Position numbers and translations under genes: made by a program. Below, in pieces: positions 2,064 through 12,146 of a stretch of DNA of 64,000 bases. The notes below the pieces were generated by a model. It had not been told where the DNA came from, searched no databases, and saw only the letters and a program-made list of their open reading frames with translations. The DNA lies in NCBI GenBank assembly GCA_965237465.1, contig OZ250138.1, positions 23,137 through 87,136 on the forward strand. The letters run 5' to 3'. This DNA is from Dehalococcoidia bacterium. Lineage in GTDB: Bacteria; Chloroflexota; Dehalococcoidia; UBA6926. Numbering within the stretch: position 1 is the first letter of the stretch; each line of letters starts with the position of its first letter.

Positions 2064-3353
2064 CTAGCTGGGGCTAGTGCTCATGGCCAGCGTGCCCGCG
2101 GAGACGGGAAGCACGCCGTGCGTCACTGCGACCTCTGCCTTGATGGTGACTTGCCGCTCGCCTGCGCGTCCCTGCAGCTGCTCAAGCGGGTCGGTGATGA
2201 ACACGGTTCGCATGCGTCCCGTGCCCATGTTGCCGCCGCCGGAGTTGAGCGGATTGGGGCCCTTCAGGCTAATGTCGCCGGCGTAGAAGTCGTGCGCCTC
2301 GCCGCGCTTGACGCCGCGCCATCCAAAGGCCTCAAGGAAGTACTGTGTGAACACTGCGAACCCGTCATAGGGCGCGAAGATGTCGATGTCCTCAGGCTTG
2401 AGGCCGGACCCGTTGTAGGACCGCTGCGCCTGGATGTCCGTCCACTCTTCCGTGTCATCGATGGTTTGGACCAGGCTTCGCGGCTGGAAGCCGCTCTGCG
2501 TGTGGTCAAGAATGTAGACGGGCTTCTGCTGCATGTCCCTGGCGCGCTCAGCCGTCGTGACGACGTAGGCCGCCGCAGCGAGAACGGGGCGGTCGCAATC
2601 GAAGATGCTGAGGTCGCGGGCGATCATTCGACCATTGAGGTAGTCCTCTTCGGTGAACTCGCCGGGCTCATGCTGCGCATAGTAGCTGTGCGGCCAGAGC
2701 TGGCCGTTCTTGCGCTCCTGCACCACAAACGGGGCCATGCCATCATGGGTCTTCCCGTACTTCTGGCAGTACTGGTTGAATGTGAAACCCTGGCCGGAGA
2801 GTCCCCAGCCCCAGGTATTCGGCCAGACGGCGGGTCCGCGGGCCTCATTGGTGGGGTCCTGATGATACCGGCCCGGCAGGTTGCCGGCGGGGTAGGTGAC
2901 CAGGACAACCTCTGCGCGGCCATCGCCGACAGCCTGGGCAGCCTGCCCTATGAGGTTCCAGATCGGGTCGCCGTGGTTGTTGATGTAGCGGATGTTCTTC
3001 ATGCCCATCTGATTTCGGAGCCACTGACCGGTGACGTGGGTCAGGCCGTCCTCAGAGTCATAGGGCGGGTCAAAGTAGGGCCGGGGGCCCCAGACATCGC
3101 TCAGAGGCTGGCCGTTGCCCTGGCCGCCCGCGGATCCAACGATGCCATCAACATCGTCGATGGTGAGCCCGGCGTCGTCGAGCGCATTCTGCGCGGCGGT
3201 CATCATGAACGCGCCAAGGGACTCATCAAGAGTCTCGCCGTCCCAGCGGCGCTCCGTGCGGGAGTGTCCTCGCGCGACCAACGCCACCTTGCCCCGGTAG
3301 GGCCAGAGACCGACGGGGTCGTGATTTCGCTCCCAGTTGACTTCACGTGCCAT
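2064..3353 (-). CDS. Thiolase-fold (SCP2/nsLTP-type) protein lacking the canonical Cys nucleophile, copy 1
   Basis: N-terminal thiolase pattern (KVALVARG...AAQNALDDAGLTIDDVDGIVGS). The canonical N-x-x-C-A-S-G position reads YINNHGDP, and there is no C-terminal Cys-His pair (NSGGGNMGTG). Followed by a DUF35 partner gene. Confidence 0.8.
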   Translation of the reverse strand: MAREVNWERNHDPVGLWPYRGKVALVARGHSRTERRWDGETLDESLGAFMMTAAQNALDDAGLTIDDVDGIVGSAGGQGNGQPLSDVWGPRPYFDPPYDSEDGLTHVTGQWLRNQMGMKNIRYINNHGDPIWNLIGQAAQAVGDGRAEVVLVTYPAGNLPGRYHQDPTNEARGPAVWPNTWGWGLSGQGFTFNQYCQKYGKTHDGMAPFVVQERKNGQLWPHSYYAQHEPGEFTEEDYLNGRMIARDLSIFDCDRPVLAAAAYVVTTAERARDMQQKPVYILDHTQSGFQPRSLVQTIDDTEEWTDIQAQRSYNGSGLKPEDIDIFAPYDGFAVFTQYFLEAFGWRGVKRGEAHDFYAGDISLKGPNPLNSGGGNMGTGRMRTVFITDPLEQLQGRAGERQVTIKAEVAVTHGVLPVSAGTLAMSTSPS

Positions 3354-3418
3354 TAGTATTTTGTCCTTTCAGCTTGCTGTCTGTCGCTTTCGCGGCAATT
3401 GCTCAATCACTGTCTCAG

Positions 3419-3850
3419 TCAGGAGACGATTTTCCACTCAGGAATCATGACGCCGGGCGCTGCCTCGACGAACATGACCTCGACGGTCGCGCCGACGGGG
3501 ATGTCGGGATCGCCCTGAATGTTGGCGCCGAAATCCTCCTCCAGGTTGGAGTGGAAGTTGATAAGCGCGTCCTCTTCCAACGCGACGATGGCGTTGATGA
3601 AGGGCTGCTTGGGGTGCCACTGAACCAGGCGGGAGTCAAACGTCATGGAGTAGCCGACGATCCTGGCTCGTCCACTGGTCTCCTGCCAGCTCAGATGGAA
3701 ATTGAAGCCGCAGTCGCGGCAGACGGGCTCAGGCGGAAACTGCCTGCGGTCGCACATTGAGCAGTACTGAACGATGAGCTTGCCCTCGTTGCAGGCATCC
3801 CAAAAGGGCTTGCTCGCTGGATCTGGAACTGGAACAATCGGTCGTGCCAT
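3419..3850 (-). CDS. DUF35 OB-fold / Zn-ribbon acyl-CoA-associated protein, copy 1
   Basis: CSMCDRRQFPPEPVCRDCG is a C4 zinc ribbon followed by an OB-fold region, the architecture typical of DUF35 partners of SCP2 thiolases. Start chosen at MARPIVPV (ATG 3850) with GGGGGTAGAA RBS, matching copy 2. Confidence 0.75.
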   Translation of the reverse strand: MARPIVPVPDPASKPFWDACNEGKLIVQYCSMCDRRQFPPEPVCRDCGFNFHLSWQETSGRARIVGYSMTFDSRLVQWHPKQPFINAIVALEEDALINFHSNLEEDFGANIQGDPDIPVGATVEVMFVEAAPGVMIPEWKIVS

Positions 3851-4040
3851 TTCTACCCCCATGTACAGTGACATTTTTGCTACCCTGCGGACAATATCAC
3901 GGCCAAAGTTTCCGTGTCAATGAGTACAGAAATACGCTGAATTAGAGATAGCAAATACTAGTATGTGCGTATATGTTCAGGCTCACCTTTTGGAAACCGG
4001 ACGCTGCGTCAGAAGGATGGGTAAACGTCGATGGCGGCCG

Positions 4041-4111: not shown

Positions 4112-5401
4112 CTAGTCGGGGCTAGTGCTCATGGCCAGCGTGCCCGCGGTAACGGGGAGCACGCCGTGCGTCACTGCAACCTCAGCCTTGGTTGTGACCT
4201 GCCGCTCGCCTGCGCGTCCCTGCAGCTGCTCAAGCGGGTCGGTGATGAACACGGTTCGCATGCGTCCCGTGCCCATGTTGCCGCCGCCGGAGTTGAGCGG
4301 GTTGGGACCCTTCAGGCTGATGTCGCCGGCGTAGAAGTCGTGCGCTTCGCCGCGCTTGACGCCGCGCCATCCAAAGGCCTCAAGGAAGTACTGTGTGAAC
4401 ACTGCGAACCCGTCATAGGGCGCGAAGATGTCGATGTCCTCAGGCTTGAGGCCGGACCCGTTGTAGGACCGCTGCGCCTGGATGTCCGTCCACTCTTCCG
4501 TGTCATCGATGGTCTGGACCAGGCTTCGCGGCTGGAAGCCGCTCTGCGTGTGGTCAAGGATGTAGACAGGCTTCTGCTTCATGTCCCTGGCGCGCTCAGC
4601 CGTCGTGACGACGTAGGCCGCCGCAGCGAGAACGGGGCGGTCACAATCGAAGATGCTGAGGTCGCGGGCGATCATTCGACCATTGAGGTAGTCCTCTTCG
4701 GTGAACTCGCCGGGCTCATGCTGCGCATAGTAGCTGTGCGGCCACAGCAGGCCGTTCTTGCGCTCCTGCACCACAAACGGGGCCATGCCATCATGGGTCT
4801 TCCCGTACTTCTGGCAGTACTGGTTGAATGTGAAACCCTGGCCGGAGAGTCCCCAGCCCCAGGTATTCGGCCAGACGGCGGGTCCGCGGGCCTCATTGGT
4901 GGGGTCCTGATGATACCGACCCGGCAGGTTGCCGGCGGGGTAGGTGACCAGGACAACCTCTGCGCGGCCATCGCCGACAGCCTGCGCGGCTTGCCCGATG
5001 AGGTTCCAGATCGGGTCGCCATGGTTGTTGACGTAGCGGATGTTCTTCATGCCCATCTGATTTCGGAGCCACTGACCGGTGACGTGGGTCAGGCCGTCCT
5101 CAGAGTCATAGGGCGGGTCAAAAAAGGGTCGAGGGGCCCAGACGTCGCTCAAGGGGGCGCCGCCTGGCTGTCCGCCCGCGGACCCGACAATGCCATCGAC
5201 TTCGTCGACGGTTATGCCGGCGTCGTCGAGGGCGTTCTGTGCGGCTGTCATCATGAACGCGCCAAGGGACTCATCAAGGGTCTCGCCGTCCCAGCGGCGC
5301 TCCGTGCGGGAGTGTCCTCGCGCGACCAACGCCACCTTGCCCCGGTAGGGCCAGAGACCGACGGGATCGTGATTTCGCTCCCAATTGACTTCACGTGCCA
5401 T
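4112..5401 (-). CDS. Thiolase-fold protein lacking the canonical Cys nucleophile, copy 2 (about 97% aa identity to copy 1)
   Basis: Same length (429 aa) and near-identical sequence to 2064..3353, with scattered substitutions. Confidence 0.8.
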   Translation of the reverse strand: MAREVNWERNHDPVGLWPYRGKVALVARGHSRTERRWDGETLDESLGAFMMTAAQNALDDAGITVDEVDGIVGSAGGQPGGAPLSDVWAPRPFFDPPYDSEDGLTHVTGQWLRNQMGMKNIRYVNNHGDPIWNLIGQAAQAVGDGRAEVVLVTYPAGNLPGRYHQDPTNEARGPAVWPNTWGWGLSGQGFTFNQYCQKYGKTHDGMAPFVVQERKNGLLWPHSYYAQHEPGEFTEEDYLNGRMIARDLSIFDCDRPVLAAAAYVVTTAERARDMKQKPVYILDHTQSGFQPRSLVQTIDDTEEWTDIQAQRSYNGSGLKPEDIDIFAPYDGFAVFTQYFLEAFGWRGVKRGEAHDFYAGDISLKGPNPLNSGGGNMGTGRMRTVFITDPLEQLQGRAGERQVTTKAEVAVTHGVLPVTAGTLAMSTSPD

Positions 5402-5490
5402 TAGTGTTCTGTCCTTTCGACTGGAATTGCTATCCGTGACTCGCAGCGGCGCAATGCGGAGTTTTCGCCGCTATCTGGTTGATATATCAG

Positions 5491-5922
5491 TCAGGAGACG
5501 ATTTTCCACTCAGGAATCATGACGCCGGGCGCTGCCTCGACGAACATGACCTCGACGGTCGCGCCGACGGGGATGTCGGGATCGCCCTGGATGTTCGCGC
5601 CAAAGTCCTCCTCCAGGTTGGAGTGGAAGTTGATAAGCGCGTCCTCTTCCAACGCGACAATGGCGTTAATGAAGGGCTGCTTGGGGTGCCACTGAACCAG
5701 GCGGGAGTCAAACGTCATGGAGTAGCCGACGATCCTGGCTCGTCCACTGGTCTCCTGCCAGCTCAGATGGAAATTGAAGCCGCAGTCGCGGCAGACGGGC
5801 TCAGGCGGAAACTGCCTGCGGTCGCACATTGAGCAGTACTGAACGATGAGCTTGCCCTCGTTGCAGGCATCCCAAAAGGGCTTGCTCGCCGGATCTGGAA
5901 CTGGAACAATCGGTCGTGCCAT
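5491..5922 (-). CDS. DUF35 OB-fold / Zn-ribbon protein, copy 2 (100% aa identity to copy 1)
   Basis: The 143-aa ORF is identical in protein sequence to copy 1 from MARPIVPV onward. Only a few synonymous nucleotide differences separate the copies. Confidence 0.75.
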   Translation of the reverse strand: MARPIVPVPDPASKPFWDACNEGKLIVQYCSMCDRRQFPPEPVCRDCGFNFHLSWQETSGRARIVGYSMTFDSRLVQWHPKQPFINAIVALEEDALINFHSNLEEDFGANIQGDPDIPVGATVEVMFVEAAPGVMIPEWKIVS

Positions 5923-6066
5923 TTCTACCCCCTCCTCGGCATATGCTTATTGCCGACGAAACGTAGCATCCCGCCGTTGCCTGTGTCAATCAGACGTGAA
6001 CCGGCGCCGCCTACGCAAGCGCGGGGGCGGCGCCGGTCCTTGCCAGAGCTGATCTGAAGGACTGGC

Positions 6067-7791
6067 CTAGCTGCCTGAGGCCTGAATTCGCTCCGCCTGC
6101 ACGGTTAGAGCGGCAAACTCTGCGACGTCGCTATCGTCCGGCAATAGCCGCCGGAGCCGCTCGGCCTCGGCAACAACATCCTCGAGGCTGCCCTCTCTCG
6201 CCCAGTAGCTATCCCGCAAAATCTCCGCATATTCGGCCACGACGGCGGAAAGCTGGTAGCGCGCCGGCGCATTCTCAAACTGGTCTGAGAGACTGTTGCC
6301 TGAGAAGGTGTGTTGAATCTCGCTTACACCGCCCGTGTCGGGGTCTTCATACCGCACATAGACGGTGGCTAGGGCGGCGTCAGTTGGGCCGTCGTCTTGC
6401 AGCTTGTATTCGTAGAGCGCTGTCACGGTGTGTCCGGCGCCGACCTCGCCCGCGTCCACCGTGTCATCCCGGAAGTCCTCATCCGCCACGTCCCGATTCT
6501 CGTAGCCGAGCAACCGGTAGCTGCGCACGACGTCTTCATTGAAGACCACTTGCACCTTCGTATCCTTCGCGATGTTCTGGAGCGTGCCTGTCAGGTCGTC
6601 CACAAAGACGCGCCGCGCCTCCGCGATCGTGTCAACGTAGAAGTACGCGCCGTCGCCGTCATTCGCCAGCTGCTCCATCAGCACGTCGTTGAAGTTGGAC
6701 ATGCCGAACCCAACGGTGGTGAGCGTGACGCCCTCATCGACGTATTCGCGGACCTCGTTCAGGATTGAATCCGCCCCGGTGCGGCCAACGTTGCCAACGC
6801 CGTCCGACAACAGGATGACGCGCGTGATCCTGTCCGAATCCACCTCGCCGGCGGCCATTATGTACGCTAACTTCAGCCCGTCCTCAACGTAGGTGGAACC
6901 GCCCGACTGCAACCTATTGATTGCATTGATTATGGACGATCTCTCCCCGCCGTCCGTCGGCTCCAGCAATACGAATCCACGATCCCCGTAGATGACGATG
7001 CCAACCTCATCCGTGCGCCTCAATTCATCGACCAGCAGGCCCAGGGAGCGCTTTACCAGGCCGAGGCGGCCCTCCCCGGCCATGGAGCCGGACACGTCAA
7101 TCGCAAAGATGAGGGTTGCGTCCTTTCTGTCATCTGACGAAATGACTTCACCCTGCAGGCCGATGCGAAGCATCTTGTGGTTGTCCAGACCGAACCTGGA
7201 GGGAGAGCCATCCACGATGATGTTGAAAGCGCCCTCGGTCGGCGGCGTGTACCCTTGCTCGAAGTAGTTGATGAACTCCTCGACGCGCACAGAGTCGTTG
7301 TTCGGGAGATAGCCGTCCTGCACGTATGCCCGCGCTACGCTGTATGATGCCGTGTCCACGTCAATAGCAAACGTGGAAAGGTTGTCGTCCTCCGTGTCAA
7401 TAAACGGATTGACGCCGTAGTTCTTGAAGAAAGTCAGGTCATAGGCTTCGTCATTGACAATCGCCGAGCCGCCGATGGCGTTGAATCCCTCCCTGGAATC
7501 TGTCACGTAGATCGTCTGGGGAGCGTCCCATGATTCAGCGACCAAATTGTAAGATGCGCCAGAAGCCTGTGTTGGTCCCACGTATTCGCTTTGGGCCTCC
7601 AGCTGCGGACTCGTCCCGGAGAGGGCAGTCACACCCCCTCCCCCTCCACTCGAAACCAATCCCGATTCGCCGCTGAGCATAAGTACAGCCGGATCGCCGC
7701 CAGCGAACCTAAAGTACGTAAACACGACCAGCGTTATGCCAAAAAGCGTGAGCGCCGCCAGCAGCATCTTGCGTGTCATAAGTCGCCACAT
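6067..7791 (-). CDS. YfbK-like von Willebrand factor A domain protein with an N-terminal TM anchor
   Basis: N-terminal hydrophobic helix. The YfbK-type N-domain motif reads STFAIDVDTASYSVARAYVQDGYLPNNDSVRVEEFINYF. The VWA MIDAS motif is DVSGSM...SGGST...LLSDG. RBS GGGGTGA lies before the ATG at 7791. Confidence 0.8.
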   Translation of the reverse strand: MWRLMTRKMLLAALTLFGITLVVFTYFRFAGGDPAVLMLSGESGLVSSGGGGGVTALSGTSPQLEAQSEYVGPTQASGASYNLVAESWDAPQTIYVTDSREGFNAIGGSAIVNDEAYDLTFFKNYGVNPFIDTEDDNLSTFAIDVDTASYSVARAYVQDGYLPNNDSVRVEEFINYFEQGYTPPTEGAFNIIVDGSPSRFGLDNHKMLRIGLQGEVISSDDRKDATLIFAIDVSGSMAGEGRLGLVKRSLGLLVDELRRTDEVGIVIYGDRGFVLLEPTDGGERSSIINAINRLQSGGSTYVEDGLKLAYIMAAGEVDSDRITRVILLSDGVGNVGRTGADSILNEVREYVDEGVTLTTVGFGMSNFNDVLMEQLANDGDGAYFYVDTIAEARRVFVDDLTGTLQNIAKDTKVQVVFNEDVVRSYRLLGYENRDVADEDFRDDTVDAGEVGAGHTVTALYEYKLQDDGPTDAALATVYVRYEDPDTGGVSEIQHTFSGNSLSDQFENAPARYQLSAVVAEYAEILRDSYWAREGSLEDVVAEAERLRRLLPDDSDVAEFAALTVQAERIQASGS

Positions 7792-7937
7792 GAGATTTCA
7801 CCCCTTTTCGCCAGGCTGCTGGATCAGCCGCACCGCGCGCAGACATGACAACCAACGATATGCAGACGTACGGCCCGGCGGGTGCACGAGCCACAACCAC
7901 TATCACGCCGCCTACACCACAATCCGCACAACAAACG

Positions 7938-8050
7938 TGTTGCATTCAGACTGAAACGCGCGACAAACGTGTCGCATTCGGGCACATTTGGCGGACTTTT
8001 AGCGGCACACGTCGGGTAGGCGGCAATTTCTACGCCGAAAGCGCACCACG
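7938..8050 (+). repeat. Degenerate copy of the promoter-proximal region and first codons of the XRE-TPR gene (compare 9988..10100)
   Basis: GTGTTGCATTCAGACTG ... TGTCGCATTCGGGCACATTTGGCGGACT matches GTGTCGCATTCAGACTG ... TGTCGCAATCGCGCACGTTTGGCGAACT at 9988-10048. Weaker similarity continues about 60 bp further (ACGCCGAA block). The frame is broken by TTTTAG. Confidence 0.5.
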
Positions 8051-8196
8051 CCCCTTAAGGCCAGCGACGTCGTTGCGCTAATTTCGTGGGAAACGCCTTA
8101 GCATGGCGCCGCCTAGTCCTCCCGTCATTCCGGCGAAAGGCGGAATGAATCCCGGCTCTCCCATCCCCGCAGAGGCCCCATCCGCGACTCGCGTGT

Positions 8197-8232
8197 TGAC
8201 ATATCCCGCCACTGACCTACATAGAATATTAA
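8197..8232 (+). promoter_or_regulatory. Candidate sigma70-like promoter for the LRR lipoprotein gene
   Basis: Perfect TTGACA at 8197-8202. AT-rich -10 candidates (TACATA / TAGAAT) lie 16-20 bp downstream, so the spacer is ambiguous. Confidence 0.3.
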
Positions 8233-8269
8233 TGCTCGACGGCCAAAACTAAGGTAGGTGACAGCTCCG

Positions 8270-9610
8270 ATGCTCCGCGCTTCCAGATTGCTAACTCTCT
8301 TGCGGAATTGCGCTCCTGCGCTCCTAATGCTCCTTCTGGCCCTGCTCGCAGCATGCGACTCCGGTAACCCCTGCGCCACGCCGCCTTCTGACTCCCCGAG
8401 GCCAGTACAGCCTGCGGTTGTGCTCTTACCTACCGCTACTGTAGAGCCCACGCCCACGGTGGCGCCCACGCCCACGCCGGTTGTTTCGATGTCCGCCGAA
8501 ACGGATCGCCTGGCGCTGATCGCGCTTTACAACGCGACGAATGGCCCCAACTGGATCGACAATACATATTGGCTGAGCGATCAGCCCATCGACACGTGGA
8601 GCGGCGTTACCATCAACAGCAACGGCCGGGTCACTGCACTGCACCTCGGTCAAAACAGGTTGACCGGTGAGATGCCGATAGAGTTGAGCAACCTCGACAA
8701 ATTGGGAGCGATGATCCTCAGCGGAAACGAGTTGAGTGGATCACTGCCGTCGGAGTTGGGCAACCTGACGAACCTGGGAGCGCTGAACCTCAGTAAGAAC
8801 AGGTTGAGCGGGGAGATACCGCCTGAGTTAGGCAATCTAACGAACTTGTCTGAAATAGCCCTTGGTGACAACGGGTTGACTGGCCCGATACCGCCTGGGC
8901 TGGGCAACCTTGCCAGCCTGAGAAACCTGTACCTATACAACAACGATTTGAGCGGCCCGATACCGCCTGAGCTTGGCAACCTTGCCAGCCTGAGAAACCT
9001 GTACCTATACAACAACGATTTGAGCGGCCCGATACCGCCTGAGCTTGGCAACTTTGCCAGCCTTGAGCAATTGATCCTGTACGACAATCGGCTTAGCGGG
9101 GAGATACCGCCTCAGTTGGGTAATCTCGCCAGTCTCACGTTGTTGAGACTCAATGGCAACGAATTGAGCGGGGAGATACCACCTGAGCTGGGCAACTTCG
9201 CCAGCCTTGAGCAATTGATCCTCTACGACAACGAGTTGAGCGGAGAGATACCGCCTGAGTTGGGGAATCTGCCAATGCTGGTAACGCTGAACCTCTTCAA
9301 TAACGAGTTGAACGGTGAAATACCATCTGAGTTGGCAGGTCTCGCAAACCTGGAGACGCTGTCCCTTGGCGTGAACCACTTTAGCGGGGCGCTGCCGTCG
9401 AGGTTGGCGAATCTCGCCAAACTTGAGGTGCTAAACGTCAGCAGGAACCGGTTGAGCGGGACGATACCTTCGGAGATCGGCAATCTCGCCAACCTGCACG
9501 ATCTGAGGGTTAACGAGAGCGGATTGAGAGGGTGTATACCGGCCAATTTGCAAGCCCAGCTGAGCTCTGTTTCCAAGTTGGGTGGGCTGCCGTACTGCCC
9601 GGCGCCCTAG
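8270..9610 (+). CDS. Leucine-rich-repeat lipoprotein (plant-type 24-residue LRRs)
   Basis: Signal peptide with lipobox LLAAC. There are more than 12 tandem LxxLxLxxNxLSGxIPxELGNLxx repeats. ATG 8270 (MLRAS) is preferred over the GTG at 8258, which abuts the AAGGTAGG RBS. Confidence 0.8.
   Translation: MLRASRLLTLLRNCAPALLMLLLALLAACDSGNPCATPPSDSPRPVQPAVVLLPTATVEPTPTVAPTPTPVVSMSAETDRLALIALYNATNGPNWIDNTYWLSDQPIDTWSGVTINSNGRVTALHLGQNRLTGEMPIELSNLDKLGAMILSGNELSGSLPSELGNLTNLGALNLSKNRLSGEIPPELGNLTNLSEIALGDNGLTGPIPPGLGNLASLRNLYLYNNDLSGPIPPELGNLASLRNLYLYNNDLSGPIPPELGNFASLEQLILYDNRLSGEIPPQLGNLASLTLLRLNGNELSGEIPPELGNFASLEQLILYDNELSGEIPPELGNLPMLVTLNLFNNELNGEIPSELAGLANLETLSLGVNHFSGALPSRLANLAKLEVLNVSRNRLSGTIPSEIGNLANLHDLRVNESGLRGCIPANLQAQLSSVSKLGGLPYCPAP
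8909..9052 (+). repeat. Perfect 2 x 72-bp tandem repeat inside the LRR gene
   Basis: 8909-8980 is identical to 8981-9052 (one LRR unit each, LASLRNLYLYNNDLSGPIPPELGN). A third diverged unit follows. Confidence 0.9.
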
Positions 9611-9963
9611 CAGCTAACCGCTCTCAGAGTGCAGCGACTGTGGGACGAGAGCGGTAGGACCGGGGTTCTCGTCGGGCGTCGCAGACGGAGCGACGGTGGG
9701 GCTTCTTGACTGCTTCGGCGGGTCTCACCCTCTCCATGGGGTGATTGCGGCCATCAGGTCGTGACGCTTGGCCGCTCTTTGCCCAGCGGAACGGCCGCCG
9801 ATTGCTGGCGGCCGCGAAACGTGTCAATTCGCTGGCGTTTCCCCTAGGAAAGTCGCAAGCGTGGCCAACTACGTCGTCAGCGGCAACTGCCAACAGCCAT
9901 GCCTCGCTGCCGCCCGCTGCCGTGCTACTTCGGTCGGCGGCCACACAGCCGCCGGCACGCCCA

Positions 9964-10031
9964 TTGACGTACAATCTTGTATAGAGCCGTGTCGCATTCA
10001 GACTGGACCACGTTTCAAAATGTCGCAATCG
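9964..10031 (+). promoter_or_regulatory. Promoter/operator region of the XRE-TPR gene: TTGACG -35-like box plus TGTCGCA(T/A)TC direct repeats
   Basis: TTGACG sits at 9964. TGTCGCATTC at 9991 and TGTCGCAATC at 10021 (the second overlaps the start codon) are 30 bp apart. The same motif pair recurs at 7941 and 7969. Confidence 0.4.
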
Positions 10032-12014
10032 CGCACGTTTGGCGAACTCCTGTCGACATACATGGCTCGGACGGGCATTGGCGACGCCGAACTCGCGCGC
10101 CGGATCCCGGTCAATCGCCTTACGCTCGTGCGTTGGCGGGAAGGAGTTACAGGCCGGCCGCGCCACCGCAGCGACGTCCTGCGTTGCGCGGAGCTGCTCC
10201 GGCTAACGTCTGAGGAGCGGGATGAACTCCTCGCCGCCGCCGGTTTTCCGCCGGAAGCTGCGCCGGCTGCCGCTGTCCCGCCTGCCTCTCAGCCTTCCGA
10301 GCCTGCCCCGCCCGCTACCGCGCCGCTGCCTTCTCCCGTAACGCCACCCGCCGCGCCGCTTGATCCCATTGCGCCGGTGATAGCCGATGGCGCCGCCATG
10401 TTCGTGCGGCCCCGTCAAGCCGCCAGTCGCCTCAGGCGGATCGTTTTTGTCTCAGCGGCGGTAATGTTAGGTGTGTTGGTTGTCCTGGCGGCAATTGTCA
10501 TCACGACGCGAGACACGCTGACCTACCCCGTAGCCGGAGATGGCGAATCGCTGATCATCCTTGCGCCATTTGAGAACTACACGACAGGCGCGCAGGGATT
10601 CAACGTTGCAGGCCGTCTCCGGGAGGGGATCGATGCCGCTCTAGCTGAGGCCGAACTCCCAAGAACGCGCACCGCGGAATGGCCCACTTCGATCAAGACC
10701 GAGGAAGACGCCGGGCGCGCCGTGGAACGATCCTACGCGGCGTTCATCATCTGGGGCGAATACGATAGCGGGCGTGTTGTGGCCCGCTTTACGATGCCGG
10801 ATGGCCTGGGAACGGGCGGCGCGGATCAGATAGTAGACATTGCATCCACTCCCTCTGAACTGCCGGCGGTGATCAATGTCGGTCTCTCCGGTCAGGTGCA
10901 ACACTTCACCCTCGTCACGCTCGCTGTTTACTATCTGGAACAGAACGACTTTGACATGGCCAAGGCGGTGTTAATCAAGGCCCTGAGCCCTCTGCCATCC
11001 GATTCGGCAGAGCAGTCTCACGTTCTTTATTTGTTGGGGAACGCGTATCTGGGGGGAGCGCTACGCGACTACGATGAGGCGATCTGGCGATTCACGCAGG
11101 TGCTCTCAAACCAGCCTTGGTCCGTGGAAGCATTAAATGGCCGGGCCCTCGGATACCTGGGGCGAGAGCGGGACGGCGACGTCGTTCACGCTTTGATTGA
11201 CCTCGATCGCGCTGTTTCCATCGAGCCGGATCGCCCTGCCACGCACCTGAATCTGGCCGTGGCGTTCATGCAGCGGGGCGGGATTGGCGACACAGACAAC
11301 GCGCTCGGCGCATTGAATGATGCTCTATCGCTGGACGATGGCTATGCGGCGGCGTACGCAAGCCGCGCCGGAGTGTATCTGGCGAGGGACGAAAGCGGGG
11401 ACGTTGAACAGGCCTTTGAAGATGTGGCAATGGCGCTGGAGATTCGGGATGATCTTTCATCGGCTCTTCTGATTTACGGCCACGCCTACATCGCGCGCGA
11501 CAGGCAGGGAGACGTTGCGCGCGCTATTGGGCAATTCACACGCGCGGCGCAGCTTGAACCGGACGCGCCCGCGCCATACTACTATCGGGGTCTCGCTCAC
11601 TCCGCGCGCCAGGACATTCAGACTTCTGTATTGGATCTGTGGCACGCGCAGGGCCTTGACCCCCTGAAAGCGAACTACAGCCGCGCCCTGTGCCTACAGC
11701 TTGGCATTTTCGGACAGGCGGATGAAGCGACGACGCATTGCGATCTGGCGGTTGCGGCAGCTCCCGGAGAACTGACGTCGGACAGCCGCGGAATTGTGAA
11801 TGCGCGCCTAGGTCGATATAAGGAAGCAATCGCTGATTTTGAGGCCGTCCTGGACTGGGCGGACGCCTTCGGCAATCCGGTGTGCGGACAAGACTTTCGG
11901 GAAACACGCCTCAGGTGGATCGATGCGCTTGAGGCCGGCCGGAATCCACTGACGACACGGCTATTGCCAGAACTGCGGCCATTGCCGACGATTCCGGGCC
12001 GCCAACCGTGCTGA
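10020..12014 (+). CDS. Membrane-anchored transcriptional regulator: N-terminal XRE-type HTH, Pro-rich linker, one TM helix, extracytoplasmic TPR domain
   Basis: HTH: RTFGELLSTYMARTGIGDAELARRIPVNRLTLVRWREG. TM: IVFVSAAVMLGVLVVLAAIVITT. There are multiple TPR-like repeats. Start chosen at ATG 10020 (MSQSRTFGELL); the 9768 extension is Cys-rich and implausible. Confidence 0.7.
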   Translation: MSQSRTFGELLSTYMARTGIGDAELARRIPVNRLTLVRWREGVTGRPRHRSDVLRCAELLRLTSEERDELLAAAGFPPEAAPAAAVPPASQPSEPAPPATAPLPSPVTPPAAPLDPIAPVIADGAAMFVRPRQAASRLRRIVFVSAAVMLGVLVVLAAIVITTRDTLTYPVAGDGESLIILAPFENYTTGAQGFNVAGRLREGIDAALAEAELPRTRTAEWPTSIKTEEDAGRAVERSYAAFIIWGEYDSGRVVARFTMPDGLGTGGADQIVDIASTPSELPAVINVGLSGQVQHFTLVTLAVYYLEQNDFDMAKAVLIKALSPLPSDSAEQSHVLYLLGNAYLGGALRDYDEAIWRFTQVLSNQPWSVEALNGRALGYLGRERDGDVVHALIDLDRAVSIEPDRPATHLNLAVAFMQRGGIGDTDNALGALNDALSLDDGYAAAYASRAGVYLARDESGDVEQAFEDVAMALEIRDDLSSALLIYGHAYIARDRQGDVARAIGQFTRAAQLEPDAPAPYYYRGLAHSARQDIQTSVLDLWHAQGLDPLKANYSRALCLQLGIFGQADEATTHCDLAVAAAPGELTSDSRGIVNARLGRYKEAIADFEAVLDWADAFGNPVCGQDFRETRLRWIDALEAGRNPLTTRLLPELRPLPTIPGRQPC

Positions 12015-12025
12015 TTCGATAACGC

Positions 12026-12063
12026 AAGTCGGCCCGGCTGCCCTTCATAGGCAGCCGGGCCGA
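12026..12063. terminator. Bidirectional terminator between convergent genes (16-bp perfect stem)
   Basis: AGTCGGCCCGGCTGCC ttcata GGCAGCCGGGCCGACT. Confidence 0.6.
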
Positions 12064-12146
12064 CTTAGTCTCGCCTTAGAAAGCGACGGCTACGAAGGAA
12101 CCTCCGTCGCGAGAACGAGCGACGACATGTCGCTTATATATCCCCG

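Follow-up and report, generated by a model that had tools for sequence, protein, structure and literature searches.

Three kinds of described systems resemble the locus analysed here. The first is the RRNPP group of regulators (PlcR, NprR, PrgX and the Rap/Rgg relatives), which are soluble cytoplasmic HTH and TPR receptors devoid of a membrane segment. The HTH-TPR protein encoded in our window (the whole 64-kb stretch of DNA that was analysed, originating from an uncultured Dehalococcoidia lineage) likewise combines an XRE-type HTH at its N-terminus with TPR repeats behind it, however, it is a Chloroflexota protein of about 660 amino acids in which a proline-rich linker and one transmembrane (TM) segment separate the HTH from the TPR, and which has a conserved partner, a VWA/YfbK-like protein. 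The hydrophobic segment (residues ~141-161) reaches a Kyte-Doolittle 19-residue mean of 2.96. The HTH_31 match of the window protein (E = 5e-4) is under the Pfam cut-off; 23 of 24 family members match HTH_31, the best with 7e-9. No small signalling-peptide gene is evident beside HTH-TPR among the called genes of the loci.

The second kind is that of the autoregulated divergent pairs of an HTH regulator and its target, with which the locus shares the conserved divergent pairing, a compact intergenic region (~100-200 bp) and two TGTnnCA-type boxes, a candidate operator, just downstream of a -10-like hexamer. Unlike in the classical pairs, a membrane anchor and an extracytoplasmic TPR part are predicted for the regulator, and in the window lineage the pair is split by an LRR lipoprotein gene. 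The third kind is the truncated-pseudogene relic: in the window a 5' fragment without coding capacity (copy A) flanks the inserted gene as a direct repeat, this copy drifts near-neutrally and in one relative carries a conversion tract from the functional copy (copy B), and the organization of an LRR-less relative (L014) is compatible with repeat-mediated deletion. The locus differs from typical relics in that the duplicated unit is an entire bidirectional control region together with the first codons, so that both VWA and HTH-TPR kept an upstream region; furthermore, no mobile-element signature was found, and copy A may be old, as it is shared with a deeply diverged clade (L100). The literature search returned only general conflict-system papers and no description of the VWA/HTH-TPR module. 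We propose that copy A, which spans about 7888-8044 and may extend to 8078, is very probably the relic of the original control region and of the first ~25 codons of HTH-TPR. The features of the locus are as follows.

6067-7791, minus strand: VWA/YfbK-like gene, product membrane-anchored at its N-terminus (Pfam vWF_A, VWA, YfbK_C), the ancient divergent partner of HTH-TPR.
7888-7968, plus strand: non-coding part of copy A, counterpart of the putative HTH-TPR promoter and leader in its original place.
7918-7923 and 7936-7953, plus strand: -10-like CACAAT and box 1 (CGTGTTGCATTCAGACTG) of copy A, located by alignments and by colinearity of the L014 nhmmer match.
7969-8044, plus strand: codon remnant of copy A, about the first 25 codons of HTH-TPR, reading GTG-SHSGTFGGLLAAHVG-stop (TAG 8017-8019).
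Within 7969-8044, plus strand: ACGCCGAA block of copy A, GIGDAE-like, frame-shifted.
8062-8078, plus strand: possible extra remnant CAGCGACGTCGTTGCGC, resembling HTH-TPR codons ~50-57 (10169-10189), marginal.
8111-8269, plus strand: LRR upstream region with TTGACA (8196-8201), TAGAAT (8222-8227) and the SD AAGGTAGGTG, strongly conserved.
8270-9610, plus strand: LRR lipoprotein gene, inserted (lipobox LLAAC; Pfam LRR families; 24-residue repeats with a 72-nt period).
9938-10019, plus strand: non-coding part of copy B, the putative promoter/leader now serving HTH-TPR.
9964-9969, 9970-9975, 9980-9985 and 9988-10005, plus strand: TTGACG, TACAAT, TATAGA and box 1 of copy B.
10020-12014, plus strand: HTH_31, single TM and TPR gene, HTH-TPR (Pfam TPR families and HTH_31).

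Two further repeats were seen in the window. A perfect 17-bp inverted repeat (AAGTCGGCCCGGCTGCC/GGCAGCCGGGCCGACTT, 12026-12066) occupies the gap between the convergently oriented HTH-TPR and thiolase genes and is likely to form a bidirectional terminator hairpin that has no T-run. Positions 2064-3860 and 4112-5932 constitute a 1.8-kb tandem duplication of 94% identity that comprises a thiolase-like and a zf-ChsH2 gene. Since two ChsH2/thiolase sets are also present in L011, L098, L099 and L100, this duplication is old, and concerted evolution may keep its two halves 94% alike in the window. As to the LRR gene, a protein search for its provenance yielded matches dominated by long, repeat-rich LRR proteins; its upstream region (8111-8269), which lacks a counterpart in L100, includes a near-palindrome (CATTCCGGCGAAAGGCGGAATG).

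Alignment of the two 5' regions confirmed the duplicate that an earlier note on this DNA had placed at 7938-8050 and 9988-10100, in a register corrected by 2 nt: copy A 7936-8044 pairs with copy B 9988-10096 (7936 with 9988), with a single 1-nt gap and 79 identities in 111 columns (71%). The claimed 75-80% identity is reached only in the leading 63 nt, where it is 78% and which comprise box 1, the spacer, box 2 and the first codons; it falls to 62% in the following 46 nt, and the 33 nt upstream of the match (7903-7935) are 53% identical. The local alignment score of 41 is far above those of 1000 dinucleotide shuffles (mean 10.4, sd 1.4, maximum 16). A blastn search of the entire VWA/LRR intergenic region against the window returned copy B as the sole match (E = 8e-11), an nhmmer profile of A regions recovered the B copies with E = 1e-19 to 3e-23, and the 18-mer CGTGTYGCATTCAGACTG occurs exactly twice in the 64 kb, where 0.08 occurrences are expected. 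Box 1 of copy A (GTGTTGCATTCAGACTG) has a single mismatch relative to copy B. Box 2 is TGTCGCATTC at 7970-7979 in A and TGTCGCAATC at 10021-10030 in B, where it overlaps the start codon of HTH-TPR; the ACGCCGAA block of A (8033-8040) pairs with 10084-10091 of B. The two boxes, the weaker similarity at this block and the correspondence of VSHSGTFGGL to MSQSRTFGEL as the first ~10 codons had all been described correctly. The stop had been misplaced: the TAG of the proposed TTTTAG (8000-8002) is out of frame with the GTG at 7969, the frame of which first stops at TAG 8017-8019 and thus has 16 codons. Further downstream, similarity of the patch 8062-8078 to 10169-10189 is marginal (p about 0.01 against random window segments), and so is any extension of the homology past 8045 (p about 0.01-0.03). 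If the patch is real, it implies a 56-nt deletion in copy A by which the HTH recognition region would be lost.

The question of which copy is ancestral was approached through the family. A metagenome contig scan contributed 80 more loci, and 57 loci (earlier ones included) have at least 1200 nt upstream of HTH-TPR. A divergent VWA gene is upstream of HTH-TPR in 45 of these 57, less than 700 nt away in 40 of the 45. In L001-L003, L014 and L094-L097, VWA and HTH-TPR are immediate divergent neighbours separated by about 125-210 bp (about 150-210 bp without L014) and by no LRR gene; HTH-TPR and VWA of L001-L003 and L094-L097 are 51-55% and 67-72% identical to those of the window, respectively, and for the VWA of L002 and L003 the values are 72-73%. 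Among L001-L093, tblastn found the LRR gene in L010-L013 only, and the later-added L098-L100 also carry it between VWA and HTH-TPR. The order VWA, copy A, LRR, copy B, HTH-TPR is common to the window, L010, L011, L012, L098 and L099, the HTH-TPR of the latter five being 85-91% identical to that of the window; L013 is a short contig with just the end of LRR, copy B and HTH-TPR. The divergent VWA in 45 of 57 loci and the LRR gene in only a few argue that the VWA/HTH-TPR pair is ancient and that LRR was inserted into it. In L012 (ENA ctg124831) the gene calls split both VWA (435 + 58 aa) and HTH-TPR (433 aa), although the DNA aligns well; owing to probable frameshift errors in the assembly, L012 was excluded from codon-based tests of these two genes.

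When four A regions were combined into an nhmmer profile, this matched the LRR-less L014 in colinear order all the way from the start of VWA to the first codons of HTH-TPR (E = 4e-24), surpassing its matches to the B copies. Copy A also retains ancestral states that are lost from B: of the 13 positions that separate the -10-like hexamer from box 1, A agrees with the orthologs at 7 and B at 2, and A has CTGAAACG as in L014 and SHS as in the MSHSRTF of L014. Within the window clade, identities are 0.76-0.94 among A copies, 0.90-0.97 among B copies and 0.60-0.70 between A and B. Among 63 loci from outside the window clade, not one carries a second 5' region upstream; the later-added L100 does. 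No residual homology was found between the VWA N-terminus and the region upstream of copy B. As judged from these alignments, copy A is the in-situ original, and what came in addition was the LRR gene together with another copy of the control region. The notion of a transplanted operator put forward in the earlier note therefore has to be turned around, since it is A that occupies the ancestral position beside VWA.

A ~70-nt segment next to VWA (window 7792-7861) and the VWA N-terminus MWRxMTRK are common to the window, L010 and L099, whereas L011, L012 and L098 have neither and instead carry an L014-like CACGAACCTCCTG start region. This pattern contradicts the species split, so recombination between lineages is likely at the 5' end of VWA. 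L010 (3564-3700) has, in addition, a perfect 55-nt tandem duplication in the VWA-proximal region.

Rates of change were expressed as the fraction of invariant columns across five genomes of the window clade. This fraction is 0.53 (345/655) at 4-fold degenerate sites, 0.58 and 0.70 in two generic intergenic regions, 0.69 in the non-coding part of copy A (7868-7968), 0.64 in its codon remnant (7969-8044) and 0.48 in 8045-8110. The LRR upstream region (8111-8269) reaches 0.78-0.80 (p = 3e-9 against 4-fold sites), and the non-coding part and first codons of copy B reach 0.85 (pairwise 0.89-1.00 within the clade) and 0.90, respectively; except for copy B, the LRR upstream region is the most conserved stretch nearby, and in the window clade it is likely to be the LRR gene's own promoter and leader. 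An early four-genome test suggested that copy A is constrained relative to 4-fold sites, and this became weaker with the generic-intergenic yardstick and two more genomes. The excess of the non-coding part of A, in which the element conserved throughout the family is located, over 4-fold sites (0.69 vs 0.53, p = 0.002) is real, yet not specific to A; with 0.64-0.69 against 0.58-0.70, copy A behaves as ordinary intergenic DNA. The stretch from the -10-like hexamer to box 1 likewise has 0.69 invariant columns (p = 0.054).

The boxes of copy A show no sign of purifying selection, as positions invariant in the family changed independently in the A copies of the window, L098, L099 and L011. The -10-like hexamer became CACAAT in the window and L098 and TACAAA in L099; box 1 became GCGTTGCACTT in L098 and ATGTTGCATCC in L011, and copy B is unchanged throughout. 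Copy A has also lost its coding capacity, since neither start nor length is conserved and the later blocks are frame-shifted. The start codon is GTG in most relatives and ATG in L011 and L100; the window, L011 and L098 have the stop at 8017, where the frame of L010, L012 and L099 has CAG and continues.

One A copy bears the trace of gene conversion. Copy A of L011 has 17 private changes, 11 of which equal the state of its own copy B; 10 of these 11 fall in a 52-nt tract (7956-8007 in window coordinates) that includes the restored ATG. In the other A copies only 2 of 9, 1 of 4 and 0 of 2 private changes equal B. The species split (window and L011 against L010 and L012) is supported by 9 sites, the alternatives by 0 and 1, which identifies the tract as a B-to-A conversion on the L011 branch.

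As for the course of events, we infer the following. The LRR lipoprotein gene would have come between VWA and HTH-TPR in an ancestor of this Dehalococcoidia lineage, with an accompanying duplication of ~160-250 bp that took in the coding start and the ~80 nt of intergenic DNA immediately before it. The downstream duplicate, B, would have stayed on the intact gene, where it is now strongly constrained. The upstream duplicate, A, has lost its coding function through the change of ATG to GTG in most lineages, frame shifts, stops and the probable 56-nt deletion, and now drifts at the ordinary intergenic rate, its likeness to B being aided by occasional B-to-A conversion. This state may have been reached by (i) tandem duplication of the control region and first codons with subsequent landing of LRR between the copies; or (ii) an insertion whose repair duplicated the target. 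The data fit both routes.

L100 and L014 bear on the age of the event. L100 represents a deeply diverged sister clade (HTH-TPR and VWA 47% and 67% identical to the window) with the order VWA, A-like remnant (ATG and 16 matching codons), LRR, copy B, HTH-TPR; its LRR gene is a shorter ortholog of 57% identity, and the ChsH2/thiolase genes that flank VWA are shared with the window. L014, the nearest relative of L100 (HTH-TPR 68%, VWA 80% identical to L100), has the flanking genes of the window on both sides and no LRR. The most economical account is that a single insertion and duplication took place in the common ancestor and that LRR was later lost in L014, the very loss to be expected if the direct repeats A and B recombined with each other. 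In the alignment of the copies, A and B of the same clade go together in 15 columns, against 6 columns that unite copies of the same type and 4 crossed ones, a distribution that fits recurrent conversion and independent duplications alike and hence leaves a single ancient origin unproven. The 4-fold sites between the window and L100 clades are saturated (0.33-0.42), so an old neutral relic would need conversion, or else selection or independent later duplications, to stay recognisable.

Some peculiarities of these two loci may be recorded here. In L100 (reverse complement, 6949-7180) the LRR frame holds a signal peptide and the lipobox RILILVLILVAVLISC, with no ATG, GTG or TTG upstream of the hydrophobic core; it is in a different frame from the A-remnant ORF, whose end it overlaps, and starts about 65-150 nt past the remnant. 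The gene may begin at a rare codon (ATT after GAGGGGG), be affected by an indel in the assembly, or depend on copy A. Just past the 3' end of HTH-TPR, L100 (1-1417) has a second VWA/YfbK gene that is absent from this place in the window; in L014 a ~2.3-kb gap (about 5200-7500) is found at the corresponding position.

The control region that was duplicated is recognisable throughout the family. The VWA/HTH-TPR control region has the common form GTACACTTCAA-N-TGTGTTACATT-N-TGCAACA, and in the short VWA/HTH-TPR intergenic region of 34 non-identical family loci the motif cc.AtccT-N~14-GTaCACTTCAAgc.cCAG.TGTGTtaCATT...tGcaACa was found, in which a -10-like TACACT/TACAAT is followed ~13 nt on by two TGTnnCA boxes. 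A sharply conserved ~40-nt form, GTACACTTCAAG-N7-TGTGTTACATT-N3/4-TGCAACA, is seen in 34 distinct metagenome loci among L014-L097 (e.g. L043, L076 and L089). This ~40-nt motif may serve an uncharacterised module as bidirectional promoter and operator, and the TTGAAG element, read on the minus strand, could act as the -35 of VWA. Box 1 of the window, GTGT(T/C)GCATTCAGACTG, is the family element, which makes box 1 at copy B a good candidate operator for the HTH domain. The paired boxes vary in the family without compensation (TGCACCA/TGCAACA, TGTACCA/TGTACCA), which points to DNA sites and not to a hairpin in RNA. A scan of both strands of 7600-10200 (copy A, LRR upstream region and copy B) for sigma-70-type consensus promoters gave no site, and L002 likewise gave none. 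By eye, the spacer is 20 nt between TTGACA and TAGAAT of LRR and 10 nt between TTGACG and TATAGA of copy B; with empty scans and such spacers, the promoter assignments remain guesses. Reading the TGCAAC/TGTAAC box as an ECF-type -35 of HTH-TPR was rejected, the box being too near the start codon.

These motifs bear on the alternative that fares best beside the relic, namely that copy A is a functional second operator/promoter, the HTH-TM-TPR protein binding TGTnnCA boxes in both copies so that VWA, LRR and the regulator would form one envelope regulon. The duplication would then have preserved the control region of VWA or provided LRR with a co-regulated promoter upstream. The best block shared by A and B (box 1 and CAGACTG, 17/18) is indeed the window form of the motif of the 34 loci and stands just past the position of the -10-like TACACT, the homolog of A is the sole upstream DNA of VWA in the outgroups, and the non-coding part of A exceeds the 4-fold sites in conservation. 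Moreover, neither a start nor an upstream region proper to LRR is evident in L100, and copy A may drive LRR there. Set against this, A is conserved like generic intergenic DNA and far less than B, its box 1 and -10 positions mutated independently in four genomes, the LRR gene of the window clade has its own, better conserved upstream region (0.78) with a strong SD, and the promoter scan was empty. Nor does the rest of the window hold an excess of the box: the 10-mer TGTCGCATTC, with one mismatch allowed, was found 8 times against 6 expected. The co-control of LRR and/or VWA through A that the earlier note had envisaged is thus unsupported, and we consider a functional second operator unlikely. 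It is similarly doubtful that duplication of the control region allowed LRR to enter the regulator/target pair without orphaning either gene, with A still bound and recurrent conversion keeping the operators alike across a divergence that has saturated the synonymous sites. The relic that we favour may nevertheless have a weak residual function in its non-coding part, e.g. within the VWA upstream region, of which it is the only stretch with a counterpart upstream of VWA in the outgroups, and could to that extent still contribute to VWA or LRR expression.

A second alternative, also raised by the earlier note, is that copy A is what remains of a full paralog: the whole HTH-TPR gene would have been tandemly duplicated, its upstream body lost and LRR put in its place. 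The neighbouring 1.8-kb duplication demonstrates that the region does duplicate in units of ~2 kb, and the offset between A and B in the window (2052) is close to the length of HTH-TPR. The offset ranges from 1875 to 2199 among the relatives, however, which makes 2052 a coincidence; for the same reason a link with the offset of the neighbouring tandem duplication (2048) was rejected. No HTH-TPR 3' or TPR debris was found between 8045 and 9950, where full-length tblastn detected only the gene itself and a diagonal scan was negative, and no relative has an intact second HTH-TPR at the position of A: the six close relatives in which the region is available all have the same truncated fragment. 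What stands of the pseudogenised paralog is that A is a non-coding relic of the HTH-TPR 5' end; with no TPR debris left, duplication of the entire gene is improbable.

Still less credible is a small leader ORF or a structured RNA common to both 5' regions. A 16-codon ORF does start at GTG 7969, and ATG is kept in L011 and L100, but neither length nor stop is conserved; folding z-scores (-0.25 for A, -0.52 for B and about +1.2, i.e. +1.16, for the LRR leader) indicate no stable fold, Rfam gave no match below E = 0.99, and the lack of compensation in the family boxes also speaks against an RNA structure. Finally, transposons and IS elements are recognised by 2-15 bp target duplications, terminal inverted repeats and a transposase or integrase, and such an insertion was rejected because there is no transposase and no short target duplication, no inverted repeats flank 8045-9950, the direct repeat is at least 110-160 bp long and LRR is the sole gene inside.

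Copy A, read as the relic of the original 5' region, provides a clean worked example of insertion into a divergent pair, duplication of the control region, decay, conversion and probable repeat-mediated reversal. A by-product of more use is the recognition of a divergent module of VWA/YfbK and membrane-anchored HTH-TPR across many Chloroflexota metagenome loci, for which the ~40-nt motif constitutes a testable candidate operator of uncharacterised, putative transmembrane one-component regulators.
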